Assembly (NCBI GenBank): GCA_020697715.1
Contig: JAEHCO010000012.1
Span: 1 to 17,671, forward strand
DNA from: Methanobacteriota archaeon
GTDB lineage: Archaea > Thermoplasmatota > Thermoplasmata > SG8-5 > JAGLSY01
DNA: 17,671 nucleotides
Direction of reading: 5' to 3'
Shown here: in pieces, positions 1-17,671 of the stretch
How the letters are laid out: each line of letters begins with the position of its first letter
How positions within the stretch are numbered: the first letter of the stretch is position 1
Made by a program: the position numbers and the translations under genes
Notes under the pieces: generated by a model
Told to the model about the DNA's origin: nothing
The model's input: only the letters and a program-made list of their open reading frames with translations
Database searches by the model: none

Positions 1-129
1 GGGATCGCCATGAGTCATTTCGAGGTCTCGGCAATAGAGCTCGGAAAGGCAGGAAAATGGGTATTTGAGGAACCTGATATAAAGAAGATCAATGATCAAT
101 ACGAATATGTCGGTAGCTATTTGATCTAA
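1..129 (+). CDS. Nitroreductase-family protein, C-terminal fragment (partial)
   Basis: Frame 1 is open from base 1 to TAA at 127-129: GIAMSHFEVSAIELGKAGKWVFEEPDIKKINDQYEYVGSYLI*. The 'GIAMxHFE...ELG..G.W' pattern matches the C-terminus of TM1586-like nitroreductases. Not in the ORF track because it is truncated. Confidence 0.7.
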   Translation, partial: GIAMSHFEVSAIELGKAGKWVFEEPDIKKINDQYEYVGSYLI

Positions 130-144: not shown

Positions 145-702
145 TCACCAGGTGTAGAAGTGCATCTTGACCTCGCCATCTCCACCGAATGCCAATGAAT
201 TCCATGAGGATGCATGAACTTCATCACCAAGTTCACTCTTGAAATTATCAAAGTTTGGTGCCATGTCGATGGAGGTCCTGTTCATCGACATTCTGATATT
301 GCCGTATTCTATCCAGAGGGCCCAATCGTATATTGGCTCCACGATGAGATTTGCCTGTATCGATATATTTTCATTGTAAGAGAGAAAATTATCAGGAGCC
401 ACATCCCCATCTTTTAGCAAATGTAATTCTTCCATTAACAGGAATTGCACACTAAGATTATTGCGGATATGGATAATATTGTAAGAGTCGATGTAGGATA
501 CCACCGGAATACTGGAACTCATCCATGCCAGCCGCACTTGGTCATTGTATTCCGCACTTTGATGATCCCTTATCAGTTCCGCACTATCTGACATGGTGAC
601 ACCGATCGTCAGAAAAAGGCCAGAAATGATGATCATGATGACGAAGAACAGCATCGCGTCTAGTAAGGACATCATGCCATCATCATCCCATCTTTTACTC
701 AA
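145..702 (-). CDS. Pilin-like protein with putative class III signal peptide (minor pilin)
   Basis: MSKRWDDDG|MMSLLDAMLFFVIMIIISGLFLTIGV: short charged leader, Gly, then a hydrophobic helix and a soluble domain. TTG start is preceded by a perfect GGAGGTGA SD that overlaps the upstream stop. Confidence 0.7.
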   Translation of the reverse strand: MSKRWDDDGMMSLLDAMLFFVIMIIISGLFLTIGVTMSDSAELIRDHQSAEYNDQVRLAWMSSSIPVVSYIDSYNIIHIRNNLSVQFLLMEELHLLKDGDVAPDNFLSYNENISIQANLIVEPIYDWALWIEYGNIRMSMNRTSIDMAPNFDNFKSELGDEVHASSWNSLAFGGDGEVKMHFYTW

Positions 703-708
703 TTTCCA

Positions 709-1260
709 TCACCTCCATATTGCCACCACCAGGAAGCTGGCTCTGTAATTTCCATCCGCATCCTCGACAACCACTGGTGTGGATTTCGAATATACGTCCA
801 CTCCAATAGGGCGATCCTCGGTGTTTATGGGCCCAAAATTCTGTCTATCGCCATGTATCGTCTCAATGTATTCACTTCTATCCAGCAACAATATTTGATA
901 TTCGAAATGCTTCAGCTCTGGTGTGAATTGATATTTCCAATCATCGATATCTGTATTGTTGAATGCCCGCCCGTTCAATACACCTTCCTGACTCAATGTG
1001 ATATTATTCCAGTTCAGTATCTCATTTGAAAAGTTATTTAGATTATCCAGCATCAGCGTGCTCTCATTGAACCTATTGTATGCCCCATAGACGATGATGG
1101 TGTTTGTTACGAACAATCCCACGGCAAAGAGAATGAATAATAATTTTGGCAGATCCTCAAAGAATCCAGCGACTCCATTATTATTGATACACAGTCTATT
1201 CTTTCTTCGCACTCCATATGATCTATTAGACCTCTGCCATCTCCTCATTTTTTGCATCAT
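709..1260 (-). CDS. Pilin-like protein with putative class III signal peptide (minor pilin)
   Basis: Basic leader, then ...INNNG|VAGFFEDLPKLLFILFAVGLFV, an amphipathic helix and a terminal beta strand (ASFLVVAIWR). Start moved from 1290 to ATG 1260 (AGGT just upstream; avoids overlap with the VWA gene). Confidence 0.7.
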   Translation of the reverse strand: MMQKMRRWQRSNRSYGVRRKNRLCINNNGVAGFFEDLPKLLFILFAVGLFVTNTIIVYGAYNRFNESTLMLDNLNNFSNEILNWNNITLSQEGVLNGRAFNNTDIDDWKYQFTPELKHFEYQILLLDRSEYIETIHGDRQNFGPINTEDRPIGVDVYSKSTPVVVEDADGNYRASFLVVAIWR

Positions 1261-1264
1261 CGAT

Positions 1265-3061
1265 TTACCTACTTTCTCTATCGAATGCATTACAATCGTA
1301 GCAGAACCATCGTTTTGAATTTCCCAGGAAGGTCAATGGTTTTTTGCATTTGGCACATTTGTTCTGGAAGTTTCCTTTCTCCAGATATTTTTTACAACTG
1401 TCGCAATACCATCTACCATATTTGCCCAAGAATGAAGCATGCTGGCCACATTTCTTACAGTAAACCTCTGTTGGATCAGTCTTGACCGCCTTGCCTCTTA
1501 TGGAATAGAGATCGAGAAGTTCTTTCGACCCATGAATTTTAAATTCGACAGCGAAATTCGAGAATATATCGATCAGGTCATCCGTATCCTGGACCTTATG
1601 ATATTCCCCACCTGTCTTATTCGCGATCGTCATAAGGAATTCTTCATCAACGCTGTCTCCGTAACCCAGTGTGTTGATGATCATATCTTTTCTGGGGACT
1701 ATCCTTCTATCGACTATCTGAATACATTCTTCCATATTTTCAGGCTTACCATCCATCAAAAGTACGATCATCTTGTGTTTTTGATGATCGAGTTCCTTTG
1801 CCACTTCAATTGCTTTTATCAAGCCATCTTCTAGATTTGTCAGACCATGCCAGTTCTTGGCTATCTCGCCCAGCATGGCTTCGCCAAATTCCGCTATTGG
1901 GACTGCCGAGCTACAACTATGCGTCCCGTTGGGAAATTTAACAGGAATGCCCTCATCACTGAAATAGACCATGCCAAAGGCATTGTTCTGTCTCTTTATT
2001 TGAGAATAATTCAATACCGCCAAGGCCGTCCCATCAATTCTGGACACCAATTCCTTGTCGCGCATCCTTTCTATCAGAACAGTTCCATGTTTATTTGTGA
2101 ATTTTGATCCGTTTGCTTCTATTATTTCATGTGTCTTATCACCTATCACCATATCCTCTGTATCCATACTACCTGAAAGGTCGACCATCAGGATACTGTC
2201 GTAACCATTCAGTTTATTGTGCCTAGTGTTGGGAGAATTCTGAATTTCATTGGATTTAGAAATGTTCCCGCCCGATGATTCTGGTTTTGTACCAATTGTA
2301 TCTGACTGCCTCTTGGGAGAAGATGCAGATTTTTCCTTAGTTTTCTTACCTATAGAGAGTATTGTCGAACAATTGGTGCATTTATCTGAGTTCGGTGGAT
2401 TTATTGTTCCACAGACTGGGCATTTGATCTCCTGCTCGGTACTCGGTTCTTCGATTTCTATTATTACACTTGTATTATCGGCTACCACGACATCTTCGAT
2501 GTTCTTATTACCTGAAAGATCGGCCATCGGGATATTGTCATGATCATCCTGATCGGGCCAAGTGTAGGAGAAATCCTGAATTCCATTGAATTTGGCAACA
2601 TCCCCATCTGACAGTTCTGGTTTTGTATCAATCACACTCAATTGAATATCCAGTTCTTTCAGGATAAAAGAACTGCCCTTTTGAAAAGCTTTATTCTTCA
2701 TTAATTTGATTAAAATATTCTCTTTTTCCCTCACTCTCTGAAGAACATCACCTCTTTTCTTAGAACCGACCATATTCTCTATTCCGAGATCTAGAGAATT
2801 TATCTGGACCAGATTTTCCTGGTAGATATTCGTGTCCATCTTTGCCCCATCTTCGATTCCATTGGACAGCATTAGCAGAGAACTCACTCCCACAGTGCCA
2901 GATTCCATATCGCTTTGAACCTCCACAGTTCCCAGGATCCTATTACCTGTCGATGTCTGTGTGAGAGATATCAGATCTCCCGCATTCACTCCTAAATTTG
3001 ATGCATCATTAGGGTTGATCACAATATCTCCTTTATTTGATTCCACAATGCTAAGTTCCAC
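1265..3061 (-). CDS. Cytoplasmic multidomain protein: CDC48/VAT N-domain-like + zinc ribbon + VWA + two C-terminal zinc ribbons
   Basis: N-terminus IVINPNDASNLGVNAGDLISL...GTVGVS...GIEDG (double-psi barrel-like) and LMKNKAFQKG...LSVIDTKP (CDC48 subdomain 2-like); CPVCG..N....C.NC; intact MIDAS (DLSGS, GLTNL, LLMDG), INTLGYG, IANKTGGEY; CKKC...RWYCDSC and CAKC...RWFCYDC. GTG start with GAGGTG SD 6 nt upstream. Confidence 0.85.
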   Translation of the reverse strand: MELSIVESNKGDIVINPNDASNLGVNAGDLISLTQTSTGNRILGTVEVQSDMESGTVGVSSLLMLSNGIEDGAKMDTNIYQENLVQINSLDLGIENMVGSKKRGDVLQRVREKENILIKLMKNKAFQKGSSFILKELDIQLSVIDTKPELSDGDVAKFNGIQDFSYTWPDQDDHDNIPMADLSGNKNIEDVVVADNTSVIIEIEEPSTEQEIKCPVCGTINPPNSDKCTNCSTILSIGKKTKEKSASSPKRQSDTIGTKPESSGGNISKSNEIQNSPNTRHNKLNGYDSILMVDLSGSMDTEDMVIGDKTHEIIEANGSKFTNKHGTVLIERMRDKELVSRIDGTALAVLNYSQIKRQNNAFGMVYFSDEGIPVKFPNGTHSCSSAVPIAEFGEAMLGEIAKNWHGLTNLEDGLIKAIEVAKELDHQKHKMIVLLMDGKPENMEECIQIVDRRIVPRKDMIINTLGYGDSVDEEFLMTIANKTGGEYHKVQDTDDLIDIFSNFAVEFKIHGSKELLDLYSIRGKAVKTDPTEVYCKKCGQHASFLGKYGRWYCDSCKKYLEKGNFQNKCAKCKKPLTFLGNSKRWFCYDCNAFDRESR

Positions 3062-3095
3062 CCATTACACCTCTTATCGTCCCGATAGGGATGAT

Positions 3096-3105
3096 TTTAT
3101 AAAAA
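3096..3105 (-). promoter_or_regulatory. Putative TATA box of the minus-strand operon
   Basis: Minus strand reads TTTTTATAAA about 25 nt upstream of the GAGGTG SD (3073-3068). Confidence 0.5.
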
Positions 3106-3217
3106 TCTTAGGGAATTGATCATATTTTCTGTAATTGATATCATTTCATACACTGGCCATAGTAATTAACAATAGTAAACTTTTAATACTATACTATTAG
3201 TAATAATTATACCTATA

Positions 3218-3232
3218 CGAAACAAATATATA
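3218..3232 (+). promoter_or_regulatory. Putative BRE-TATA promoter of the plus-strand pilus operon
   Basis: CGAAACAAATATATA about 30 nt upstream of ATG 3262; the same CGAAAC + TATA arrangement occurs at 17378-17394. Confidence 0.45.
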
Positions 3233-3261
3233 CATTCTTAAGGTTTCATCCTTGTGATATT

Positions 3262-3705
3262 ATGAATAATCTAAGAACTAAATTTAGTATCCATAAGGGC
3301 TTGAGGGAAGATAATGGTGGCGTACTTGGCCTACCACTAAATCTATTGATCATGGTTGTGATTGCAGCTGTAGCGATAGGAATTATATTGTCATGGATGT
3401 TTCTTTTGACACCGCCTCTGGAATACATAGAGGTAACACCGACAATGGTCAATGATGTTGGCACTGCCAATACATCTTTTGACGTAGAGATCATCGCACA
3501 CAATGACAAGGGAACAATGAGTGGTTGTGAGATAACTATTGATGGCGCAGGAATAGATATGAAAGCTATCACAGGCGATGATGGTTCATACACATTTGTA
3601 GGCGTCACACCTACATTACCCCCGAACACGAACTCGGATTTTATCCAGGTTACTGTGTCCGGTGGCGGTAATGTTGTCACTCAAAGTATCGCAGTGAACA
3701 AATGA
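3262..3705 (+). CDS. Archaeal pilin-like protein (candidate major pilin) with a carboxypeptidase-regulatory-like beta-sandwich
   Basis: LREDNGG|VLGLPLNLLIMVVIAAVAIGIILSW class III-like signal; C-domain GCEITIDG...AITGDDGSYTF. First gene of the operon; ATGA overlap with the next gene. Confidence 0.8.
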   Translation: MNNLRTKFSIHKGLREDNGGVLGLPLNLLIMVVIAAVAIGIILSWMFLLTPPLEYIEVTPTMVNDVGTANTSFDVEIIAHNDKGTMSGCEITIDGAGIDMKAITGDDGSYTFVGVTPTLPPNTNSDFIQVTVSGGGNVVTQSIAVNK

Positions 3706-4211
3706 GACCAATAGACAGGAGGGGGATGGAGGGATTCCCCCTAAACCTTCTGATAATGTTCATTGTCGTTGCCATGATAGTTCCAATATCCTGGAATTAC
3801 CTCGAGGTCTATTCCACGCGGCAGACCCAACAAACAATAGATACTCAATTGAGCTACCTGGAATCAGCAGTGAGAGAGGTGTACTCCATGGGTCCCGGAA
3901 ACTCAAGGGTGGTGGACATGGATATACCAGGAGGAGTGGTGGCCGATCTGGAATATATGCGTATTGGCGGAGCTCCGAATGACGTATGGTCTAATCTATC
4001 CAGCTTCAGATACAGCATCAATGGCGGCGCGGAACAGTATTACATGATCACGGATCCCAATATCGCGATGGTGAATATGACGGGAGTTTTGGAATTCAGT
4101 GAAGGACACAAGAAGATAGAGGTCCGAACACTGGATGAGTTAGTTGAAGGAGATCTTGATGGAGATGGAGCCAAGTATTCGTGGGTGGTGGAAGTGAGAC
4201 TGGTCTATTAG
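3702..4211 (+). CDS. Archaeal pilin-like protein (minor pilin)
   Basis: MRPIDRRG|MEGFPLNLLIMFIVVAMIVP signal; helix ending VYSMGPGNSRVV; clear paralogue of the N-domain of 4257..9635; DLDGDG loop near the C-terminus. Confidence 0.8.
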   Translation: MRPIDRRGMEGFPLNLLIMFIVVAMIVPISWNYLEVYSTRQTQQTIDTQLSYLESAVREVYSMGPGNSRVVDMDIPGGVVADLEYMRIGGAPNDVWSNLSSFRYSINGGAEQYYMITDPNIAMVNMTGVLEFSEGHKKIEVRTLDELVEGDLDGDGAKYSWVVEVRLVY

Positions 4212-4256
4212 ATGATTAACAATAAGATTCAGATAAATAATTAATGAGATGATAAA

Positions 4257-7200
4257 ATGGGACGAGGGATTGGAAGAGACCGGGGAGGTATCGAAGAGAT
4301 ACCTATGAAATTACTCGTTATCATGGTCGCTGTGGGCTTCATTGTCCCAGCAGCATACCATGGCATGAGTGTGAATGCACAGAATCAGACCAAGACTGAT
4401 TTGCAGGATGCTATGGACGAGCTGGTGACCGCCATACGTTTTGTATATGGTCAGGGTACATTGGAAACAAGGGAGGTCACTCTCGATCTGGGCAATTCAA
4501 GATTTTCCGATCTTGGACCTATAATAATAGGAGATCGGATAGGAGAACATCCTGGGGTTAACCAATCCACAATATCGTACAAATATGGGTCTGCGTGGGA
4601 GCATGTCGTTGTCACTGATCCGAACATCCCGATAACATCTCCAGACAACAGTGCTCTGATATTGGATGGGTATGATAAATGGGAGCTCGTGATCCAGAAG
4701 GACACGATAGGCTTCACAGATTTTGTCGTTGTCAGGGTCAAGGGCCAGGAAGGCGAGGTTCAGATGCCAGATCTGTACGTGGGCTCCATTTCGGTTCTCA
4801 ATAATCCAATAGAGGGTGGCTATGAAGTGGATGATGATACCTGGCAGGAGTATAAACCCGAGATGTTAACTCCTTTTGTCCCGCCCGGATATTCACTTTC
4901 TGCTGTCATTAAGAATATCGGTAACCTGGGCACGGATGATCCGGATGCTAAATGGAACGATGGCATAGGTGAGGATGATGGAGTTATAAGAGTTAGATTT
5001 ATTGATTACATAATTGATAAAAATGAGACCAGGCAGATAGGGGAACCAGTAATTATCACAAATCTCGCTCCAGATGAGGAGATCACGATCACGGCGGATC
5101 AACCATGGAGGGTGGTGGATTATCTGTATAGAGACTGGGCATTTGATAGAGAATTGCTTAATAGGAAGATAATCGCCCAGGTGGATTATATCGAATATGA
5201 CATCGATGTGGAGAACCAGACGAGCAACATAATAGGTGGCGACAATATTGATGAGATCGATGGGGAGAATAATAACAGGGAGTATTTGCACATTGAGATC
5301 CCCCCAGTGATCAATTCGGTAGAGGCTGAGTATGATGATCCAGATCCTGGAATAGGAGTATTTGTCCAGGGCATTGAAGTGTTCAATAAGTTCACCATAA
5401 ATGCGACCGATGAGAACGGTTTCGTATGGCAGATCCTCATGTGGTACAATGGGGATGAACTTTCCATTGAGGTACCTGCGGATTGTGATATCCCCACTCA
5501 GGTGCTCATGGAAGAAGCTCGAAGGGGGAACTTCTTCACGACCTACATCGACATGGGTGGAATAAATGGAACTTCCAATCTCACAATAGCCGCGATTGAC
5601 AATGCAGGTGTTGGAAGTGACCCTTATGAAACCTCTATTTACATAGAACTCCCACCACGCTGGATGGAGAACACTGATGATCCGACAAGGGCGACTACCA
5701 GCAGAGAAACTGGAACACAATCTCGAACCTTCACACCCAGTACATCCGGGAATGCAACTGGGGGTAATGGTCCTGTCAAAGCCCAATTGAATTATTTCAC
5801 ATTGATATTGGAGCTTCCTCAAACTCTCAATGATGGTAAGAAGGCCGATGCTTCAGGGGATACACCATATGTCAGTGGTCAGGAAAATAAACAATCTGAG
5901 AAGTATGTGTTGGAATTAAAGATACCCATAGGTGGCGAGATATCTTTTGGGAAGGAGAAAACATTGGAATCGACAGTCATGGGCATGGAGGTCACAGGCA
6001 CAGCAGGTGTTGAAGCTTCTGTGAATGTTGGATTTCCAGATATTGAGATCAATCTGACCAAGATATTCGACCTTATCAAAGAAGGGAAATACCTGATAAC
6101 TAATTGGAAGCAGTTCGGCCCTCTTCTCAAAGATGTGAAGGTCAATGAAGGAACGGTTCTGGAAACAACAGTTGGTGAACTGTGGAAAAAGGTACTGAAA
6201 CCTGATAATGTGGCTGATTTGATGAATGCTCTCAATCAGACGAGGAATGCGGCTGAGAACGAGTCCGCAAATACTTCATCGGATTATAGTGGGATCACAG
6301 ATGCTATATCCAATATTGTAGAGATAGTTGAGGAATATCAGGCAACCTTCGAAACCCTGAAAGAAGTTTGGGGCACTGTCATGAATATTGCTGATAATCC
6401 GGCAAGCTTACTGGATCTGGTGAGTTTCGAGGCTCGGGTGTACGCGTCCCTTGAAGTTATGAGGGAATGGCAGATATTCAGTGCCAAATACCCCATATTC
6501 CCTCCATTTGTCATGGCATCTGTTGATGTGAGCGCGGCTTTTTCAGCAGTGGCAGATACAGAAGCAAAGATATCAGCAACTTTGTCAGGTGTTAAATTTG
6601 GTCAGGTTACAGCCACATTCACTCTGGGTCTTGGCCTATATTTAGTTTGCGAATTTAATATAGGAGTGAACTTCGGGATAGCCGGAGGTGGAATGTTTGG
6701 AAGAATAATCGGAAATCCGAATCTTGCTTTGACAACAGGATTCACTTATGACACTCCGACTATCGGTATCGATGGAACGACAGCTGGTGGTTTTATTCCT
6801 GTTTGTAATGGTGCCCTGGACGTATCCCTGATGGCAGAAATTGGAGCTTACGTTGAATTCCTGTGGTGGAGGAAGGATTGGACCTTCTACAAGGACGTTT
6901 TCCAACTTGGCCATTGGAGTTTTGATGTTTTCGAAGGTACGACGGAAATACCCCCAATATATGTTCCACCCGAGCAGGATCTGGATGCGATGGCAGAAAA
7001 GGATGGTACTATAAACTTCCCCAGAGGTCCGGCAAGTGCGACTTTCGATGGCAAGACCATAGTCGTGACAAGTAAGGATCTCAACAATGATTTCCTAAAT
7101 CCTAATTATCAGATACAGGCCAAGGCGGATGGCCCGGCCATGACCCCCTCTGATATTCTGACGACCAATAATAGGCTCAAGGTCGATCCTAAAGTCATAT

Positions 7201-9635: not shown

Positions 9636-9651
9636 TCCAGGAGTGATCATT

Positions 9652-10269
9652 ATGGCAAAGAAGGCAGCTGAACCAAAAAAATCGACAACGGATAAAAAGA
9701 AAGTCGAAGCATTTTGCAATCACAGTATTGAGACATCCACGGTGGAGATGCGTCTGGTCTTTGATTGTAAGGAATGCCCAGTGGATGCAGATCTGAAAAA
9801 TAAACAATGCCTGAAAGGTGTGTTGTCCGCATTAGCAGACAACTACAATGCAGACAATGTAGTGCTGAGCGATTATGCAGAATTGAGGTACTCGGGACAA
9901 TCCATGAAGATGCTGAAGACCCTCATAGATCTCTCCAGTGAGATCGAGAATCTCTCATTACGGAATCCTCCCAGGGAATATTTCAGCGATATCAAGAGCC
10001 AGGGTGTGAAGGATAAGAGAAGAGCTACTTGCAATAGCTGCAAGGCCAATCCCCAGGTCATCTTCTCGCGTATGAAGAAGACTTTATTGGAGGATATTGA
10101 AATATTCTACAATGATTTCCTTATCTCATCTAAAGCTGTCAAGCAAACAAGAGCGGCTGAATGCCAGGCTTGTGTCAAGACCACGGAAGAGGCCCTGGTC
10201 TATGTTTTCAATCTTACTGAAGAGCTCAGAGCCTTCCTGTATTATGAAGGATTCAGTGTGGTCATATAG
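9652..10269 (+). CDS. Cys-rich (8 Cys) cytoplasmic protein, probable metal-binding partner of the assembly ATPase
   Basis: C...CKEC...C and CNSC...CQAC; no TM segment. AGGAGTGA SD at 9639-9646 favours ATG 9652 over GTG 9643. Confidence 0.75.
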   Translation: MAKKAAEPKKSTTDKKKVEAFCNHSIETSTVEMRLVFDCKECPVDADLKNKQCLKGVLSALADNYNADNVVLSDYAELRYSGQSMKMLKTLIDLSSEIENLSLRNPPREYFSDIKSQGVKDKRRATCNSCKANPQVIFSRMKKTLLEDIEIFYNDFLISSKAVKQTRAAECQACVKTTEEALVYVFNLTEELRAFLYYEGFSVVI

Positions 10270-10280
10270 GGGTGAAATGA

Positions 10281-12401
10281 ATGGTGAAGATAATAGGTCA
10301 AGAAGAAAAGGAACCTGAAGACATTGACATAGACGATGATGATGAGAAAACGAAAAAGAAAGGTGTGAAGATCATCTCATCCGAAGAAACCGAGAGAGTG
10401 GCATCTCCCGAACCTATGATCGAGGCTGAGATTATTGACGAGCCAGTAATCATGGAAGAGCCTGTATTTGAGCCAGAGCCAATTCCCACTGCCCCATCTT
10501 CCGAGCCTATTTATGAGGAGCCAATCCCCGAACCAGTGTTCGAGACTCCAGAACTAATCGAAGAGGAAGCTCCTGGACCGATGATCGAATCCACACCCAG
10601 TGAAGCAAAACAAACAGGGATGACAACCCTGGATGATGTCATACTCTCTCTCGAGAACAAGGGACCGCTTGCAATAGATGCAAAGCGAGTTCACCGGGCC
10701 ATGATCGTGATAATGGAGAAGTACCATGACCTTCGTCCTGGATTCTCTTATTCATGGGTGACCCCAGAACCTCCAGAGAATTCCAAAAAGATACTGGAAT
10801 ATAAAGTGCAAGATGCGCTCGTGAGCCTGTGGCTGATCAAAGATTTCACTTATTCTCATTATCATATCAAACCTAAGGAATACTCACTCCCCTCGGACCT
10901 CATGAAACTTATCCATCTTGCCAAGATAGAACTATTGAGGAACCGACCAAGACATATTCAATTGGATAGGCCAGGTCAGGCTAGGCTATATGTGGAGAAC
11001 TTCGGAAAGAAGATCCTATACCAGATAGCGAACAAGCATTCTATCAAGATAGGAAATACACCCGAGGAAGAAATGAAAGTCCTGGATGATCTCACTTCGG
11101 TATTGGCCAGGTACACGGTGGGTCTCGGACTCTTTGAATATTTCCTCGAAGATCCATATATGCAGGATATTTACGTCGATGCCCCAGCTCCGAAAAATCC
11201 CATCCATGCCAGCATGGGTGGTCTCGCAAACAAAGAACTTTATGACAAGTTCGTTACCAATGTGATCCTGAGCAATGAGGACGTGGACAGCATGGTGTCC
11301 AGGTTCAGGTACGAAAGTGGCAGGCCATTCTCCGAAGCCATGCCTGTACTGGAAACTGATCTTGTCCAGCACCAAACCAGGGTGACAGCCATTGGGAAAC
11401 CATTGAGTCCAGATGGCATAGGCATAGCTTTCCGAAGACATTCCACTGATCCCTGGACCATGTTGAAGCTTATTGATAATGGAACTGTATCACCTCTTTC
11501 AGCCGGCCTTCTCTCCTTCCTAATTGAAGGACATTGTACCATGCTGGTATCTGGAAGTAGGGGTGCTGGAAAGTCTTCGCTTCTTGGTAGCCTACTTCTT
11601 GAATTCCCTACGATACAGAGGATATTGACCATCGAGGACACTCTGGAATTGCCAGTTCCAGAGATGCAGAAACTAGGCTATAAGGTTCAGAGGATGTTTG
11701 TCCAGTCCACTCTTGGAGGAAAGGGTGAGATGACTGCTGATGATGCCTTGAGAACTTCCTTGAGATTGGGCGAATCCGCCCTGATACTAGGAGAGGTCAG
11801 AGGCCAGGAGGCCAGAACCCTATACGAGGCAATGAGAACAGGAACCGCAGGATCATCGGTCATGGGAACATTCCATGCGGATTCTGCAAAGTCCACCTTT
11901 GAGAGAGCGACCAGTGATATGGGCATACCAGCGACATCCTTCATGGCCACTGACATCATAGTGGTCCAAACACTGACACAATCCAAAGGTTCTCAGAAAC
12001 TATTGAGGCGTTGTACCCAGATTGCGGAAACTGCCAAGACATCTGACGTTCCTGGTGAATTCAATGATCTGATGATGTATGATAGCGATAATGATCTGTT
12101 GATGGAGACCGATGTGTTCAATTACAAATCTGAACGTATTGGGGAGATCGCTAGGAAATGGGGCATATCCATGGAGGATGCTTTGAATGATATCAGGGTC
12201 AGAGCCAGATATCGATTGGATGCGGTCGAATATGCAAGAGAGCATGATAAACCGCAGCTTTTGAAGATCGAATGGGTCGCACGCATGAACAACAAATATT
12301 GGGCACTGCGTGAGAGTGCTATAAGTGATGGAGATCTTAATTTCAATAAGATCCTGGAACAATGGAGAAAATGGTTCCTGGAAGGTGCCAAGTATGCATG
12401 A
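10281..12401 (+). CDS. Type II/IV secretion (VirB11/TadA/CpaF-like) pilus assembly ATPase
   Basis: Walker A GSRGAGKS, Asp box TIEDTLE, Walker B LILGEVRG, His box MGTFHADS; LEDPYMQDIYV; own SD GGGGTGA. Confidence 0.95.
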   Translation: MVKIIGQEEKEPEDIDIDDDDEKTKKKGVKIISSEETERVASPEPMIEAEIIDEPVIMEEPVFEPEPIPTAPSSEPIYEEPIPEPVFETPELIEEEAPGPMIESTPSEAKQTGMTTLDDVILSLENKGPLAIDAKRVHRAMIVIMEKYHDLRPGFSYSWVTPEPPENSKKILEYKVQDALVSLWLIKDFTYSHYHIKPKEYSLPSDLMKLIHLAKIELLRNRPRHIQLDRPGQARLYVENFGKKILYQIANKHSIKIGNTPEEEMKVLDDLTSVLARYTVGLGLFEYFLEDPYMQDIYVDAPAPKNPIHASMGGLANKELYDKFVTNVILSNEDVDSMVSRFRYESGRPFSEAMPVLETDLVQHQTRVTAIGKPLSPDGIGIAFRRHSTDPWTMLKLIDNGTVSPLSAGLLSFLIEGHCTMLVSGSRGAGKSSLLGSLLLEFPTIQRILTIEDTLELPVPEMQKLGYKVQRMFVQSTLGGKGEMTADDALRTSLRLGESALILGEVRGQEARTLYEAMRTGTAGSSVMGTFHADSAKSTFERATSDMGIPATSFMATDIIVVQTLTQSKGSQKLLRRCTQIAETAKTSDVPGEFNDLMMYDSDNDLLMETDVFNYKSERIGEIARKWGISMEDALNDIRVRARYRLDAVEYAREHDKPQLLKIEWVARMNNKYWALRESAISDGDLNFNKILEQWRKWFLEGAKYA

Positions 12402-14460
12402 TGGTAAGGGATTGGAAAAGGATCTGCCACCCTATGGTGCATGGTATATTTCATTGTCAAGAAAAATATTGAGGTCAGCTGGCCCATCTGAAGCCGATAA
12501 AGATAAGAAACGCGAGGAGACCAGAACTGCCTTTGAGAATGCTGAAACTATAGCCAATGAAGCCTTTGAGAAGGTGAACGAGGCCAGGATACGCGGTGAT
12601 GACACCACCAGGGAATTCCGGAGTGCGGAAGCGAAATACAAGGAAGCCAAGAAAAAGGTCGAAAAGGCTGAAGCGGTATTCAAACAAGAAAAATTTCGAG
12701 CCTCTGTAGATTTCTTGAGTTGGGATATTGACGAATTCGATGTTTTGGCACTCAGTCAGATAATGACTCTGATAGTATTCGCCATAAATGCTGTAGCGAC
12801 AATTCCTATATTCATTATTTATGGAGCCAGCTCCCTAATGTACACCATACCCTTTGTTTTCATACTTCCTTTGATCGTGCTGGGATTTTTTGCTACATAT
12901 CCTGAAAGCCTTGCTCAAAGGGTTAGGATACAAAGCCTTGGAAGGGCACCAGAGGCCATAAATTACCTTGTGATGTCGATGCGTCTTTCACCCACATTGG
13001 ACAAGGCCATTATGTTCACTGGCAATCATACAGATGAGCCATTGGCATCTGAATTTAAAAAGCTCACATGGGATCTCATGATGAGAAAGTACAATAGCAT
13101 AGAGGATGGACTTGTTGACTTCGCATCCAGATGGGGGCAGTGGAATGAAGATTTCCGTAGAGCTTTATACGCTATCAGGACAGCCACATTGGAACGGACA
13201 GAAGAAGGCCTGAAACGCACACTTGATAAGGCGAATGACATAATCCTCACTGGAACCAAGACCAGGATGGAAGGCTATGCCGCTTCTTTGAGTGGACCAA
13301 CCATGATAGTTTTCGCTCTGGGAGTATTACTTCCATTGATCATGGGCTCCATGCTCCCTATGCTTTCAATGAACATGGGAGATATGATGAACTTCGATGC
13401 AACTGGCATAGAGGATACCATGTCCGGAGGTGCTAGCGTGGAGGAATACAATATTCTACCTATCGTACTTCTGCTGGATGTAGTATTCCCTGTCATCACT
13501 CTTGTTTATTCATATTATGTTCTTGGTAATAGGCCAGGAACTACGAGTCCGCCCGATATAGCATCTCCATTCACTACCAAACAAAAACGCTCTATTGGAG
13601 TTACCGGGGTGATCATCGCTATAAGTATTGGAATGCTGGGATTACCAGTGGTCTATGAAGCGATAGGTATCGATATATTCGGTGTGACACCGATAGTTGT
13701 CGGTATCGGGGTGGGGGCATCCTTCTATCTCGTGACCACGACCAGATATCAGAAGAAGAAGAGAGATGAAACCAAAAAACTCGAATCAGAATTCCCAGAT
13801 GCTTTATTCCAACTGGGTAGTCGTATCTCCGAGGGTGAACCATTGGAATCAGCTTTCCAGAAAGTTGCCGACACTCTCAAAGGTACGATGGTGGCTGAAC
13901 TTTTTGGCACCATATCTTATAATTTGAAGATGACAAGAGCGCCACTAAACGAAATTTTGTTCAATAGGAATATAGGCGTTCTGAGGAACGTGCATTCAAG
14001 GACAATAAGAGCCACCATGGAAACAGTGGTAGAAGCAGTCCAAAAGGATGCTTCTACAGCTGGCCAGACCATCGTCACCATATCCAATTATCTGAGGGAT
14101 ATGATCCAAGTTGACCAGGAAATAAAGAACTCTCTCAGCTCAGTTGTTGATATGATGAAGACGACCGCCATACTGTTCTCCCCCATTGTCATGGGCATAA
14201 CTATCGGGCTTTATTTCATGCTATACAATCAATTCCAGGATCTGCCCTTCACATCTTCAATGATGGATCCATCTGACTTCGTACTGATCATAGGTCTGTA
14301 TCTACTGATGGTGGTAGGGATAACTGGGTATTTCGCCGTGGGAATTCAGAATGGCATAGACACGATCGAGGCAAAGTATTCCATCGGAATATCCTTGCCG
14401 ATCGCAGCCATCACTTTCTCGATAGTTACAATTCTTAGTCAATCGTTAATGGGAGGTTAG
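12394..14460 (+). CDS. Type II secretion system F (TadB/TadC-like) membrane platform with two fused T2SSF domains
   Basis: Two cytoplasmic T2SSF repeats (APEAINYLVMSMRLSPTLDKAI...PLASEF and EFPDALFQLGSRISEGEPLESAF) and about 9 hydrophobic segments. Start likely ATG 12394 (GAAGGTG SD; 8-nt overlap with the ATPase stop) rather than 12325. Confidence 0.9.
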   Translation: MHDGKGLEKDLPPYGAWYISLSRKILRSAGPSEADKDKKREETRTAFENAETIANEAFEKVNEARIRGDDTTREFRSAEAKYKEAKKKVEKAEAVFKQEKFRASVDFLSWDIDEFDVLALSQIMTLIVFAINAVATIPIFIIYGASSLMYTIPFVFILPLIVLGFFATYPESLAQRVRIQSLGRAPEAINYLVMSMRLSPTLDKAIMFTGNHTDEPLASEFKKLTWDLMMRKYNSIEDGLVDFASRWGQWNEDFRRALYAIRTATLERTEEGLKRTLDKANDIILTGTKTRMEGYAASLSGPTMIVFALGVLLPLIMGSMLPMLSMNMGDMMNFDATGIEDTMSGGASVEEYNILPIVLLLDVVFPVITLVYSYYVLGNRPGTTSPPDIASPFTTKQKRSIGVTGVIIAISIGMLGLPVVYEAIGIDIFGVTPIVVGIGVGASFYLVTTTRYQKKKRDETKKLESEFPDALFQLGSRISEGEPLESAFQKVADTLKGTMVAELFGTISYNLKMTRAPLNEILFNRNIGVLRNVHSRTIRATMETVVEAVQKDASTAGQTIVTISNYLRDMIQVDQEIKNSLSSVVDMMKTTAILFSPIVMGITIGLYFMLYNQFQDLPFTSSMMDPSDFVLIIGLYLLMVVGITGYFAVGIQNGIDTIEAKYSIGISLPIAAITFSIVTILSQSLMGG

Positions 14461-14463
14461 ATA

Positions 14464-15906
14464 ATGACACAAAGGGTCATATTTGGAAGAACAGACAAGG
14501 ACATTGATAAATACGGCATAAGAGGCTGTGGCTATCTGGGTAAGATAGTCAGCTACCCAGCTGGGCGCTATGAAGAGATGGGCGAGGTTCAATTGGATCT
14601 GGCTTTTCCCCATTGTATGCTAGTTATGGGTAAGCGAGGTACCGGAAAATCATACACTCTGGGTGTCATGGCCGAGTCCTTCGGCATGATGGAAGCAGAA
14701 CAGAAAGATCGCCTATCTGTTTTGATAGTCGATACCATGAGTGTCTTCCATAGCCTGAAGACCGCTAATTCCAATGCTTATGAGGTAGATCGTTTGAAGA
14801 GCTTTAATGGCCTGACGCCAAAGGGAATGGGTGATTATGTACACATCCTCATGCCGGAGTTGGCAATAAAGGAATTGGAGAAGGCAGGACATGATGTCCT
14901 CTATGATCAGGTCTTACAACTCCCTCTGCATGAGATAAGTGTTCAGGACTGGCTGGATTTATTCGGTCTTACTATAACCGATCCTGTTGGCACTCTTTTG
15001 ATAAAGGTGATAAGGATCCTTCAGCATAAGAATGAACCATATGGCTATGAGGATGTTTATAGGGAGATCGATAATCAGAAAATGTTCGAAGGTGAAGGAA
15101 CCAAGGACAGTCTGAAGGGAACGATCCAAATGGTGGAGGATATTGGGGTATTCGGTAAGGAAGGAACACCCTTTTCCAATATTGTGAAAGCTGGTCGTAT
15201 GACCATTTTGGACATAAGTTATCTGGGACGCCTGGGTGGTTTTGATATACGTAATTTAATAATCTCAATCATAGCCAGTCATCTCATGCGGGCTAGGACC
15301 CTATACACCACATTGGAGATGCAGGCTGAGGCAAATCTCATAGATGAAGAAGTGGCCAAGGATATCACCAAGGAACATCCTTTAGTTTACATGATGATAG
15401 ACGAAGCCCATCTTTTCCTCCCGAACAAAGGCAAGACCATCGCCACTGATGCTTTGATAGATTGGATCAAATTAGGGCGACACCCTGGCCTTTCATTGAT
15501 ATTGGCCACTCAGGAGCCTTCTGCACTTCATCAGAGTGCGATAAAGCAAGCTGATCTGATTATCGCCCATAATGTCACTGCCGCACCGGATATAGAGGCT
15601 TTGAAGATGGCGAAGCAATCATACACATCTGGAACCAAAGACTTCGACAGGCTGGTTTCGACAATGGAATTCCGACGAGGATTGGCTGTCGTAATGGATG
15701 ATAAGACCAGGAAGATGGAGCTTGTCTGTGTTAGACCAAGAACCACTCTCCATACAGGGCTTGATGCTACATTGTTCCCTCGGGAAGACAAAGCACCAAC
15801 TTCTGAGGGAAAAGAAGCTGCTGGTAATAAGAAGAACAATTCGTCTTCCACAGCAAATGATTCAGACTTCGGTGATCTCTATGGTAAGAAAATAGGTGAC
15901 AATTGA
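14464..15906 (+). CDS. HerA/FtsK-superfamily (DUF87-like) P-loop ATPase
   Basis: PHCMLVMGKRGTGKSYT (Walker A), VLIVDTM, ILDIS, YMMIDEAH (Walker B), GRHPGLSLILATQEP; no TM segment; GGAGG SD; 3 nt after the platform gene. Confidence 0.9.
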   Translation: MTQRVIFGRTDKDIDKYGIRGCGYLGKIVSYPAGRYEEMGEVQLDLAFPHCMLVMGKRGTGKSYTLGVMAESFGMMEAEQKDRLSVLIVDTMSVFHSLKTANSNAYEVDRLKSFNGLTPKGMGDYVHILMPELAIKELEKAGHDVLYDQVLQLPLHEISVQDWLDLFGLTITDPVGTLLIKVIRILQHKNEPYGYEDVYREIDNQKMFEGEGTKDSLKGTIQMVEDIGVFGKEGTPFSNIVKAGRMTILDISYLGRLGGFDIRNLIISIIASHLMRARTLYTTLEMQAEANLIDEEVAKDITKEHPLVYMMIDEAHLFLPNKGKTIATDALIDWIKLGRHPGLSLILATQEPSALHQSAIKQADLIIAHNVTAAPDIEALKMAKQSYTSGTKDFDRLVSTMEFRRGLAVVMDDKTRKMELVCVRPRTTLHTGLDATLFPREDKAPTSEGKEAAGNKKNNSSSTANDSDFGDLYGKKIGDN

Positions 15907-17339
15907 TGCTGGATTTCGTCCTTTCCAAGATGACATGGCTTATAACTTCGATACTGGTCATGTCATTCATTGTCGGCTTCTATCAGATACAGGTTGACAC
16001 CATAGATGAGAACATGCTACAGGGTGCGACCCATGAAGTCGAGCGTGTGATCAAAAGATTGGATGGGATCAATGGAGAGATGAATGTCAATTTCACCTTT
16101 GACAGATATTATTCTTACCGTTCGTTCTACCTGCCTGGCAAGGTCGGGGGCGAGATCTATAAATTCTCATTCTATGAGAGCTATATCAGAGGCACGTCTC
16201 TTTCAGGAGATATCGACATACCCCTGCGATTTGGAACCAATATCCAGCCACTGCAGATGGGAAATCAGACCAATGTGGAATTGAATGAACTTCTTGAGAA
16301 TCCACAGGAATCCTATGTGAGCAAACTGACAGTTTATTCTAATCAGGATTTTGGAGTTGCCAGTCGTTATGTCGAGGGAGAGGGCTACAAAGTATTCGTA
16401 TTTTTGTTCACAGACACGGTATTCTATTCTGCGTCTGATGATGATGGAAAGCAATTACTGTATGGGAGCAGTGAGGCTCCAAAGATCAATAATATCACAG
16501 CCACACCAGACCCCCAGGAAATAGATAATATGATGAACATCACATTGGATGTGAAAGGCGATCATATAAGCCGTGTATTCCATTCCATCAAGGATCCCAA
16601 TGGGGAAATAGCGACCACGACAATGATAAAGGGCAATGATACAGAGTATTACTATGAGACCAACTGCACCATGGTTGGTGAATATTCATATAAAGTATGG
16701 GCTAGGGATGTATTTGGCCGTATAGACTTCACAGAAGACTGGCAGACATTCGATATTATAGACACTATGCCACCATTTTTGTACGATGTACTGATAAATC
16801 ATAATCCTCAGGAAAGCGGCGATAGGGTCATATTCTACGTTAGTGCTTCAGATGCCGATGCGGTGGAGAGTGTTTATGTAAATACCACTGCCCCCAATGG
16901 TGCTAAGAGACATTATAGCATGACCCCCACCACGGGAGATCGATGGACATTCAGTGTAGAGCTGATAGCCACTGGCGAATATTTCTACGATTTCTCCGCT
17001 GTTGATCCATCAGGGAACTGGAGGGTCATAGTTGGTTATTCATTCAAGATCGAAGATACTATTAAACCATCGATAGTTAGCTTCGGAGCTTCACCACTTT
17101 CCCAGATTGTGAATAAATCTGTATATTTCAATGCCACTGTAATGGACATCGTGGGCGTGAAATCCGTGACTCTCCAGGTATCTAGGCAGAACATCGGAAT
17201 GTTGCGTGTCAGCGGCGACCTGTGGTCCATAGATAGGTCCTTCTCCAAGGTAGGAACTTACATCTATGTCATTGTCGCCCTGGACGATAGCGGTAATACA
17301 AGGACAGTTTCCGGAACAGTGAATATCACCGATCCTTAG
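15906..17339 (+). CDS. Membrane-anchored pilin-like protein with three C-terminal Ig-like repeats
   Basis: N-terminal hydrophobic helix MLDFVLSKMTWLITSILVMSFIVGF followed by an amphipathic helix; three ~95-aa repeats (P.I.....P.PQE...G.Y.Y...A.D..GN; DTxxP junctions) from about 16479. TGATG overlap with the HerA gene and AGGTGA SD (TTG 15903 is an alternative start). Confidence 0.8.
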   Translation: MLDFVLSKMTWLITSILVMSFIVGFYQIQVDTIDENMLQGATHEVERVIKRLDGINGEMNVNFTFDRYYSYRSFYLPGKVGGEIYKFSFYESYIRGTSLSGDIDIPLRFGTNIQPLQMGNQTNVELNELLENPQESYVSKLTVYSNQDFGVASRYVEGEGYKVFVFLFTDTVFYSASDDDGKQLLYGSSEAPKINNITATPDPQEIDNMMNITLDVKGDHISRVFHSIKDPNGEIATTTMIKGNDTEYYYETNCTMVGEYSYKVWARDVFGRIDFTEDWQTFDIIDTMPPFLYDVLINHNPQESGDRVIFYVSASDADAVESVYVNTTAPNGAKRHYSMTPTTGDRWTFSVELIATGEYFYDFSAVDPSGNWRVIVGYSFKIEDTIKPSIVSFGASPLSQIVNKSVYFNATVMDIVGVKSVTLQVSRQNIGMLRVSGDLWSIDRSFSKVGTYIYVIVALDDSGNTRTVSGTVNITDP

Positions 17340-17378
17340 AGTGAGTACCCACTCCAAGGGAAACCCCAGGGCTTTCCC
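17339..17378 (+). terminator. Two small hairpins after the operon (possible 3' end structure)
   Basis: GAGTG-agtacc-CACTC (17339-17354) and GGGAAA-CCC-ca-GGG-c-TTTCCC (17358-17378). Confidence 0.35.
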
Positions 17379-17394
17379 GAAACTCATTTAAATA
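17378..17394 (+). promoter_or_regulatory. BRE-TATA promoter for a leaderless downstream gene
   Basis: CGAAACTCA-TTTAAATA; TATA box at 17387-17394, ATG at 17417 with no SD, spacing typical of leaderless archaeal mRNA. Confidence 0.6.
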
Positions 17395-17416: not shown

Positions 17417-17671
17417 ATGAATGGAAAGATGAAGGGCTTGATAATTATCACCATAATAATGATAGTACTTGGCGTGCTGGTCAATCCCATATTCCCAATA
17501 GGATTTGGGGCCCTGCTATTACTAATTGTTTGGAACTCCATAGATGCATATGGTGGAAATCCACACAAACAAAGGATGAAGCGAGATGGGAGATCCCCCC
17601 TCTATAAATCCTCCTACAGAATTAATGAAACAAATAAGAATGTGGAAGAAAAAAAATCAGGTGTCAATTCA
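17417..17671 (+). CDS. Small membrane protein, N-terminal fragment (partial)
   Basis: Open to the window end: MNGKMKGLIIITIIMIVLGVLVNPIFPIGFGALLLLIVWNSIDAYGG... two hydrophobic segments followed by a charged region. Confidence 0.6.
   Translation, partial: MNGKMKGLIIITIIMIVLGVLVNPIFPIGFGALLLLIVWNSIDAYGGNPHKQRMKRDGRSPLYKSSYRINETNKNVEEKKSGVNS

Follow-up and report, generated by a model that had tools for sequence, protein, structure and literature searches.

An accessory HerA-core ATPase and a giant pilin-type protein in a type IV pilus-like locus of a Thermoplasmatota archaeon

Layout of the locus

The window, by which we mean the whole 17,671-nt stretch of DNA that was analyzed, is the entire 17.7 kb contig JAEHCO010000012.1 (referred to in the following as C3) of a Thermoplasmatota assembly (GCA_020697715.1, here G000), which is 2.12 Mb long and 93.8% complete. 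It carries a complete type IV pilus (T4P)-like locus of a published clade, together with a previously undescribed accessory ATPase with a HerA core, g10, and a lineage-specific giant pilin-adhesin, g06. The association of this HerA-branch ring ATPase with a pilus machine recurs in three gene arrangements, in metagenome-assembled genomes (MAGs) labelled as Thermoplasmata, Thermoplasmatales and Methanoperedens.

Genes were called from a six-frame open reading frame (ORF) listing of the window, which gave eleven long genes (g01–g11) and one cut gene (g12) in two facing operons. The eleven genes, their positions and spacing and the two operons were as claimed in an earlier prediction made from the sequence alone, referred to below as the original prediction. 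On the plus strand, the successive spacings from g04 to g11 are −4, 45, 7 and 11 nt, an overlap, 3 and −4 nt, the last being the 4-nt overlap between the end of g10 (15906) and the start of g11 (15903). The eleven genes are listed here, with a slash after the Gly of the pilin-like N-termini:

g01, 145..702, minus strand: 185 aa, pilin-like membrane protein, N-terminus DDDG/MMSLLDAMLFFVIM; no Pfam family
g02, 709..1290, minus strand: 193 aa, pilin-like membrane protein, NNNG/VAGFFEDLPKLLFILF; no Pfam family
g03, 1265..3061, minus strand: 598 aa, cytoplasmic VWA protein with at least 3 zinc ribbons and a possible CDC48-N-like N-domain
g04, 3262..3705, plus strand: 147 aa, candidate major pilin with a charged leader, Gly, hydrophobic helix and Ig-like beta sandwich; no Pfam family
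g05, 3702..4211, plus strand: 169 aa, pilin-like, RRG/MEGFPLNLLIMFIVV, candidate minor pilin; DUF7311 E 2.8e-5, just below cut-off
g06, 4257..9635, plus strand: 1792 aa surface protein with four CARDB stretches (E 6.7e-36)
g07, 9643..10269, plus strand: 208 aa, Cys-rich (4 CxxC-type pairs), N-terminal domain of the secretion ATPase, split off as a separate gene
g08, 10281..12401, plus strand: 706 aa, secretion ATPase of the FlaI/TadA/GspE type, its N-terminal linker acidic and rich in Pro; T2SSE E 3.2e-24
g09, 12325..14460, plus strand: polytopic platform of the TadC/ArlJ type, up to 711 aa, with a coiled coil in its cytoplasmic N-terminus; probably starts at ATG 12394
g10, 14464..15906, plus strand: 480 aa, predicted soluble ring ATPase that has a HerA core but no HAS barrel, with residues 444–480 as a disordered tail; HerA_C, DUF87, Zot
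g11, 15903..17339, plus strand: 478 aa, N-terminally anchored, Ig-like repeats; Big_3_4 E 2e-8, Big_13 E 1.7e-6

Predicted fold and family of g10

The AlphaFold2 (AF2) model of g10 had a predicted local distance difference test score (pLDDT) of 88.4 and a predicted template modelling score (pTM) of 0.88. When it was compared to solved structures with Foldseek, the top matches were all HerA proteins, with a best E of 4.6e-18. Superposition on Sulfolobus solfataricus HerA (4d2i_B; VIA) gave a Z of 33.7 and a root-mean-square deviation of 2.7 over 334 aligned residues, starting at HerA residue 107; other structural neighbours (VIA) were VirB4 (4ag5, Z 26.1), TrwB (about 20) and FtsK (about 19). 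Compared to the HerA proteins of the HerA–NurA end-resection complex (4d2i, 9x1m), g10 has kept the ATPase core fold and the Walker motifs, but it is only 14–18% identical, its model starts directly with the ATPase core and has no HAS barrel, and NurA, Mre11 and Rad50 were not found nearby. Walker A (G56–S63), Walker B (D313/E314) and several Arg residues were invariant in 88/88 sequences of the family. Scores with the NCBIfam models fell far under their cut-offs, at 15.6/600 for CedD (NF053655), 24.2/590 for VirB4_plasma and 18.9/800 for HerA_Thermprot. Judging from the model, g10 is most likely a soluble HerA-core ATPase ring that is well folded.

The family is sizeable: among 1.84 billion clusters it has 167 representatives at E 1e-30, 431 at 1e-10 and 1279 at 1e-3. 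We surveyed domain fusions in 16 long relatives (30–36% identical, with the ATPase at the N-terminus) that were picked by length among 150 listed: DUF835 was present in 11/16, SAP in 3/16, and a winged helix above cut-off in 3/16. In many DPANN relatives of g10 (P0121–P0147, P0186 and P0187; ≈31–36% identical), the ATPase contains an intein (Intein_splicing, LAGLIDADG_3).

Genomic linkage of g10 to the pilus machine

We gathered 80 loci of g10 relatives, mapped the window genes onto them with iterated hidden Markov models and classed each locus by its arrangement. g10 was collinear after the platform gene g09 in 14 of these loci, divergent from the ATPase gene g08 in 17 (from Methanoperedens and Thermoplasmatales-labelled MAGs), and directly behind a g04-type pilin gene in 32. 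Two members of this pilin-pair class (L073 and L080), in which the genes overlap by 4 nt, were assigned by hand. Altogether, g10 stood beside a T4P component in 63/80 loci from different lineages. None of the three arrangements was found within the flank in 10/80, four of which are Methanosarcinaceae-type loci, and in 7/80 the contig was too short to tell. The claim that the HerA-like gene co-occurs with the ATPase and platform in related genomes was upheld.

The pilin-pair loci sit amid housekeeping genes (RtcB, Hef, DAC, PurL), and every pilin-pair genome searched (5/5) encodes a g08 orthologue elsewhere, 46–48% identical. A small protein that follows g10 in these loci (F5) was considered as a DNA-related component and discarded, as it resembles V4R/DUF2378 instead. 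In a FastTree tree of 76 g10 sequences, the pilin-pair type formed a single clade nested among the collinear types. In the same tree, g10 of the window clustered together with that of a second copy of the locus, on contig C11 of the same assembly, and that of a Methanomassiliicoccales MAG (G020), both of which are described below.

When loci were centred on g08 instead, g10 was adjacent in 14/80. Among the 41 nearest genomes, 28 have a g08 orthologue (E <= 1e-40) and 9 a g10 orthologue (at least 46% identity). Seven of these nine g10-bearing relatives also have g08, and the other two are fragmented assemblies, one of which breaks inside g09 next to g10. The g08–g09 loci of ten relatives, six of them with a recognised g07, were examined, and g10 was beside none of them. 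The 'HerA' matches of 27% identity in the g10-less relatives G007 and G014 were not accepted as parts of the system, as they have a strong DUF87 match that starts 150–170 residues in and a histone deacetylase neighbour.

These gene neighbourhoods indicate that g10 is tied to this T4P clade as an accessory component. Because g10 is absent from most genomes holding g08 and g09, the filament machine presumably works without it. Only for g10 does linkage to the ATPase and platform extend over many lineages; pilin-like genes of the g04/g05 and g02/g01 kinds are also present at loci of the system in some related lineages.

The secretion ATPase and platform core

By sequence, the closest solved structures to g08 are Archaeoglobus fulgidus GspE (2oap), CpaF and FlaI. 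Its NCBIfam scores (bits/cut-off) were 132/550 for FlaI, 127/373 for TadA, 82.9/1000 for the bindosome ATPase BasE (NF053672) and 78.4/250 for VirB11; since all four are under the cut-off, g08 falls in none of these named groups. The scores agree with the original prediction that the system is distinct from the bindosome. They also agree with its claim that the system is not an archaellum: in addition to the low FlaI score, a search for archaellin (PF01917) gave no match in the 93.8%-complete genome and did match the control genomes. The Walker A, Walker B and His-box residues of g08-type ATPases were invariant in 36/36 aligned sequences. g09 matched T2SSF at residues 212–345 with an E of 1.8e-5 and 25.2 bits, exactly at the cut-off, and a second, weak T2SSF repeat (E 0.032) was seen in its C-terminal half. 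The order of the two genes was constant in the relatives examined, with the platform gene always after the ATPase gene.

The small Cys-rich protein g07 had no match in Pfam, NCBIfam, PHROG, PDB or Atlas. However, its residues 17–208 align to residues 4–195 of a fused 853-aa ATPase in locus L072 (E 7e-19). A weaker alignment (E 0.004) was obtained with the N-terminus of the ATPase from Methanoperedens BLZ2; the remainder of that ATPase is 39% identical to g08. A conserved Cys pattern is visible in the fused forms in an alignment of 36 ATPases. g07 is thus the N-terminal domain of the ATPase, split off here as a gene of its own and fused in relatives.

The g08 family is large, as 579 of 603 pattern matches in the genome contig collection encode a relative. 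These include cultured Methanolobus vulcani and one Methanosarcina strain, as well as MAGs labelled Woesearchaeota, Iainarchaeum and Nanohalarchaeota. The core had originally been described as divergent; with at least 579 relatives, some of them in cultured Methanosarcina and Methanolobus, and a fit to T4P subclade 4F by its Cys-rich N-domain, the core is not very divergent. As a separate observation, g07–g08–g09-type archaeal loci, 36–41% identical to g08, turned up in gut-bacterial records titled Bacteroides salyersiae, Eggerthellaceae, Firmicutes CAG:194 and Prevotella hominis 'cleanbin' isolates (L179, L183, L207, L214); they are probably archaeal (Methanomethylophilaceae-like) contigs that were binned with bacteria.

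Relation to described archaeal pili

ATPases of subclade 4F typically have a variable Cys-rich N-domain and occur with TadC, euryarchaeal pilins and an S-layer-like protein (PMC4858521). Because the window ATPase has a Cys-rich N-domain of the kind described there, we infer that the g07–g08–g09 core belongs to 4F or lies close to it. Further likenesses to 4F (PMC4858521; PMC13705601) are the succession of a Cys-rich-N-domain ATPase and a TadC-type platform, the euryarchaeal pilins, the presence in the locus of a large protein of surface or S-layer-like type that has a membrane helix at its C-terminus (PMC4858521), and the occurrence of relatives of the window ATPase in Methanosarcinales and in the three kinds of MAG named above. 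Unlike in 4F, the Cys-rich domain has its own gene in the window, and the locus includes a HerA-core ATPase.

No link between a HerA-type ATPase and this T4P clade was found in a literature search, which did not extend to the supplementary tables of PMC4858521 and PMC13705601, where the gene could be listed by arCOG number. In the searched text of PMC4858521, 'HerA' appears only as a superfamily name, and it is absent from the main text of PMC13705601; nor does the searched text of Makarova 2014 describe a T4P system with a HerA-type ATPase. A plasmid HerA cluster (PMC9674854) is different from the system in the window. According to Makarova 2016 (PMC4858521), Methanomassiliicoccus lacks secretion ATPases, and neither 'Methanomassiliicoccales' nor 'Methanoperedens' appears in the main text of Sivabalasarma & Albers 2026 (PMC13705601).

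The archaeal pilus and archaellum operons reported so far have a single ATPase gene, with the exception of CdiP of Cuniculiplasma divulgatum, an outlier among archaeal pilus operons that has two (PMC12448462). The window resembles CdiP and Aap in being a T4P locus of Thermoplasmatota, and CdiP in having two ATPases. In CdiP, however, both ATPases are of the AapE type and the platform is split, (PMC12448462), whereas the window has a HerA-type second ATPase and a platform encoded by a single gene.

Pilin-like proteins, surface proteins and the prepilin peptidase

The pilin-like proteins of the window have a common G/x(x)E[GE][LFI]P motif. The N-terminus of the g04 family is strongly conserved: in 40 sequences from the gathered loci, a charged leader is followed by [KDE]G/ALEGLPLYLIILVV, with the motif reading [KDE]G/ALEGLPLY across the homologues. 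Variants of the form G-x(x)-E-[GED]-[LFI]-P are present in g05, g06 and g02, the last being kept in G020, L135, L047, L058, L055 and L072, and a weaker form is present in g01; the motif is absent from g11. The AF2 model of g04 (pLDDT 76.7) has a 23-residue helix at 26–48 followed by a seven-strand sandwich. This beta domain has a generic Ig/macroglobulin-like fold, with a best Z of 10.0 (VIA). Comparison of the model to solved structures (Foldseek, VIA) listed Ig, macroglobulin and S-layer domains of a generic kind, solved archaeal pilins being absent from the lists, and the g04 profile gave only weak, Ig-type matches to PDB sequences.

The other pilin-like genes can also be followed in related loci. 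g05 homologues adjoin g04 in L045, L058 and L072, and come after g10 in Thermoplasmatales-labelled loci. In L055, L058 and L072, a g02-like and then a g01-like gene (g01 family F64) directly follow g10, from which it follows that the pilin-like genes on the minus strand of the window belong to the same system. By sequence, g01 is the weakest of the five pilin-like proteins; its orthologues are 73% (C11 copy) and 68% (G020) identical at the amino acid level.

The N-terminal ≈140 aa of g06 are 29–30% identical to g05, and its C-terminus has a hydrophobic helix (segment score 0.90) with a basic tail. g06 therefore joins a pilin-type module to a large ectodomain, with a further anchor at the C-terminus. 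No Pfam family matched its middle part (residues 160–1330) even at an E of 1, and the only PDB matches there were CARDB-like domains. Among 43 proteins of at least 1000 aa in the loci examined, only those of the window, the C11 copy (84%) and G020 (70%) had this architecture, so that the claimed co-occurrence of the giant gene with the core in related genomes did not hold up beyond these three. g11 has an N-terminal membrane helix and lacks a Gly-containing class-III-type motif; its orthologues were found only in the C11 copy and G020, both at 65%. Of the six pilin-like proteins counted in the original prediction, five (g01, g02, g04, g05 and g06) therefore remain.

A gene for a prepilin peptidase is located outside the window, on contig C11 (C11:316483-317451, minus strand). 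The 322-aa product is a class III-type signal peptidase, matching Arc_PepC_II above cut-off (E 6.6e-14) and Peptidase_A24 with an E of 5.8e-4. It was missed by a whole-genome scan with PF01478, located through weak matches in congeners and confirmed by Arc_PepC_II. With this peptidase, the T2SSE ATPase g08, the T2SSF platform g09, and the pilin-like motif and the helix and sandwich of the g04 model, the prediction of a T4P-like system was borne out.

Proposed function of g10

The explanation of the whole that we prefer, although our confidence in it is less than even, is that the locus encodes a T4P-like machine of the euryarchaeal clade with Cys-rich-N-domain ATPases, in which g10 threads a polymer alongside the pilus. 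The class III peptidase would cut g04, g05, g02, g01 and g06 after the conserved Gly, and a hexamer of g07/g08, docked on g09, would lift pilins from the membrane into the filament. This filament would consist mainly of g04, with g05, g02 and g01 as minor subunits. g06, with its pilin module and CARDB-repeat ectodomain, and g11 would be adhesive surface parts, and the filament would serve in adhesion or cell–cell contact. As a second motor, integral yet accessory, g10 would act at the machine's cytoplasmic face.

The polymer may most likely be DNA, moved in step with the pilus as in the cooperation of Ups pili with Ced HerA-clade ATPases, a proposal that we make tentatively and by analogy. The original prediction had suggested a coupling of adhesion to the transfer of DNA or protein, and between these we lean towards DNA because of the HerA fold of g10 and the SAP and winged-helix fusions of its remote relatives. 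In Sulfolobales, Ups pili cooperate with the HerA-clade ATPases CedB and CedD to import DNA (PMC11868833). The window shares with Ups and Ced (CedA/A1/A2/B, CedD, CedE) the combination of a contact T4P and HerA-clade ATPases, DNA transfer between cells being a feature of Ups/Ced. In contrast to the window, Ups and Ced are encoded apart from each other; a membrane segment and a VirB4-like N-domain are present in CedB and CedD, and g10 has neither; and Ced needs CedA (VirB6-like) and CedA1 (VirB2-like), while no CedA-like gene was recognised in the window (PMC11868833). Bacterial type IV secretion likewise unites a VirB11-superfamily and a VirB4/HerA-superfamily ATPase in one envelope machine, with a pilus and DNA or protein transfer as its features. 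However, the platform of the window is of the TadC/ArlJ type and its pilins are of the class III type, not VirB2/VirB6/VirB8, and a Pfam scan of all 12 window proteins found no VirB6/VirB8, coupling protein or relaxase families.

A more far-reaching version, which we put forward as speculation and consider unlikely, is that g07–g10 and the pilins constitute a machine, encoded in a single operon, that couples DNA uptake or exchange to a pilus in Thermoplasmatota, Methanoperedens and their relatives. The T4P would make contact or capture DNA, and a ring of the HAS-less HerA under the platform would pump it across the membrane. Such a machine would be a euryarchaeal counterpart of Ups and Ced built from different parts, with g06 holding partner cells in this lineage.

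Several observations weigh against threading of DNA by g10. No nuclease, ComEC/CedA-type channel, relaxase or single-stranded DNA-binding protein was recognised in the window (Pfam, NCBIfam) or in the conserved neighbours scanned. g10 itself lacks both a membrane segment and a DNA-binding domain, and the SAP and winged-helix fusions belong to remote relatives of unknown gene context. The tight pairing of g10 with pilin genes would suit action on pilins just as well as action on DNA. g10 is missing from most g08–g09 genomes, and in four Methanosarcinaceae-type loci (L090, L102, L115, L117) and four further distant ones there is no T4P gene within 10 kb of the g10-like gene. As regards the predicted cleavage of the pilins, the g04 of the window has Gly and no charged residue at position −2. 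A complex prediction for g08 (residues 150–706) and g10 (residues 1–440), made with alignments, scored 0.00 in two runs that had no controls beside them, and speaks neither for nor against an interaction.

Some of the same observations would suit an alternative in which g10 handles no DNA and acts on the filament itself, through extraction or re-insertion of pilins, as VirB4 is thought to do, through retraction, or as a nucleotide-dependent switch of the kind that ArlH is for ArlI. We rate this main alternative only slightly below the threading of a polymer by g10. In its favour, the 32 pilin-pair loci keep g10 directly behind a g04-type gene and apart from the ATPase and platform genes, pilin-like genes follow g10 in other loci, VirB4 is a close structural neighbour of g10, no DNA-handling genes were recognised in the window or the conserved neighbours scanned, and no ATPase dedicated to retraction is encoded in archaeal T4P operons (PMC12448462). 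On the other hand, the best fold matches of g10 are HerA-type double-stranded DNA translocases, some remote relatives are fused to SAP or winged-helix domains, most g08–g09 genomes do without g10, and Aap pili are reported to retract with a single ATPase (PMC12448462).

It seems improbable that g10 is simply a neighbour with an unrelated job in DNA repair, defence or chromosome handling, so that its position beside the pilus genes means nothing. The eight distant loci without a T4P gene within 10 kb, four of them Methanosarcinaceae-type and two from DPANN-labelled MAGs, would suit such a job, as would the housekeeping surroundings of the pilin-pair loci, and the titles of the structure matches show that HerA proteins are common in defence and repair systems. 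Set against this are the 63/80 loci that keep g10 beside a T4P component in three arrangements and different lineages. The HAS barrel binds the partners of HerA (NurA, effectors); g10 lacks this domain, which is the N-terminal domain of the HerA chains in the matched HerA–NurA and HerA–effector entries, and no NurA, Sir2 or DUF4297-type partner was found in the window (Pfam). In addition, the genome has a separate canonical HerA (C11:432104-433114), to which g10 is only 24–27% identical.

Less probable still is that the locus is, or derives from, a mobile conjugation-like element that uses its VirB11-type and VirB4-like ATPases, pilins and adhesin to transfer itself. A patchy distribution of g10 orthologues (9/41 relatives), two diverged copies within one assembly, and the G020 locus, with 65–90% protein identity compared to mostly 45–70% to G000 in its flanks, would suit such an element. 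However, scans of the window found no integrase, relaxase, replication gene, VirD4, VirB6 or tRNA, housekeeping genes surround both the C11 copy and the pilin-pair loci, and g10 and g08 score far under the VirB4 and VirB11 model cut-offs.

If g10 does move DNA, as we tentatively prefer, it would be a candidate for the DNA-translocating motor of euryarchaeal DNA uptake or exchange. No such motor is known to us, although no search was directed at one. If it acts on pilins instead, it would be a candidate retraction or remodelling motor, which archaeal pili lack. Both readings can be tested, as relatives of the core are present in cultured Methanosarcina and Methanolobus, and g10 is predicted to be soluble and well folded.

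The VWA protein g03

In Pfam, g03 matched VWA above cut-off (E 4.7e-7), and its zinc-ribbon matches were weak. Its PDB sequence matches were 8s05 (E 2.9e-5) and 5a8j, 'VWA2'. g03 had been described as a CDC48N-VWA protein, and while the VWA part was confirmed, the CDC48N part is backed by a weak double-psi-barrel-type Pfam match (E 0.0016) and an Atlas lead to CDC48_N/CDC48_2 clusters (0.89–0.91). The VWA gene had also been expected to co-occur with the system, but it is next to it only in the window, in G020 and in L021, where a g03-like gene adjoins g10, and lies 37 kb off in the C11 copy. From its sequence, g03 is a candidate regulator or scaffold.

A second copy of the locus and a related locus in G020

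Nearly all of C3 has a counterpart in the same assembly at 75–92% DNA identity, scattered as follows:

C3 1-131: counterpart at C30:64042-64172
C3 g01–g03: counterpart at C11:385.9-388.7 kb
C3 g04–g11: counterpart at C11:334.9-348.9 kb
C3 g12: counterpart at C11:287.3 kb

No comparable doubling was seen for contigs C1 and C2. C3 must therefore be a second copy in rearranged order, or else a contig from a close relative that was binned with this genome. The C11 copy has g04–g11 in the same order, at 84–92% identity (g11 65%), with g03-g02-g01 37 kb away. The 37 kb between the two C11 operons was considered as a mobile element and rejected, as it holds FtsZ (two genes), thermosome, L11, a Spt5/NusG-type gene and TiaS. 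Directly downstream of the g01 homologue on C11 are two genes for KaiC-family ATPases (241 aa, and 859 aa with DUF7504) at C11:381461-384822 (L031:11461-14822, minus strand); KaiC-type ATPases are listed as T4P-linked regulators (Makarova 2016, PMC4858521).

The full g01–g11 layout recurs only in G020, on a contig of a Methanomassiliicoccales MAG (G020:C32; L022, L140, L141), at 65–87% protein identity. Most genes flanking the locus on this contig are 45–70% identical to G000 and not syntenic, while the locus itself is 65–90% identical. Transfer of the whole locus between families is possible, as is a binning artefact.

Other features of the window and genome

The remaining features of the window are the following, those of the intergenic region and the inverted repeat being read by eye:

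1..126, plus strand: gene fragment at the contig start; its final 42 codons are similar to the end of an ORF of 305 aa (C30:63253-64167)
3062..3261, no strand: divergent intergenic region, 200 bp, AT-rich, with TATA-like runs on both sides
17358..17380: inverted repeat (GGGAAACCCCAGGGCTTTCCC) directly after the g11 stop, then a TATA-like run before g12
17417..17671, plus strand: g12 (cut gene), small membrane protein; weak T4SS_pilin match (E 0.0017), below cut-off

The TATA-like runs at 3062–3261 could be promoters of both operons, and the inverted repeat may mark the operon end. tRNA and Rfam scans of the window gave no match. The homologue of g12 on C11 (C11:287339-287590) is 47 kb from the C11 pilus locus, and g12 is therefore probably unrelated to the pilus.

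A different T4P locus is present at C11:626000-642000 (L139). Its genes encode, in order, an SBP_bac_5 protein of 1025 aa that has Ig domains, a T2SSE ATPase, two T2SSF proteins from separate genes, and another T2SSE ATPase (PilB3_C). With its pair of ATPases and its split platform the locus resembles the CdiP machinery, and the binding protein recalls the 'bindosome' idea (PMC13705601).

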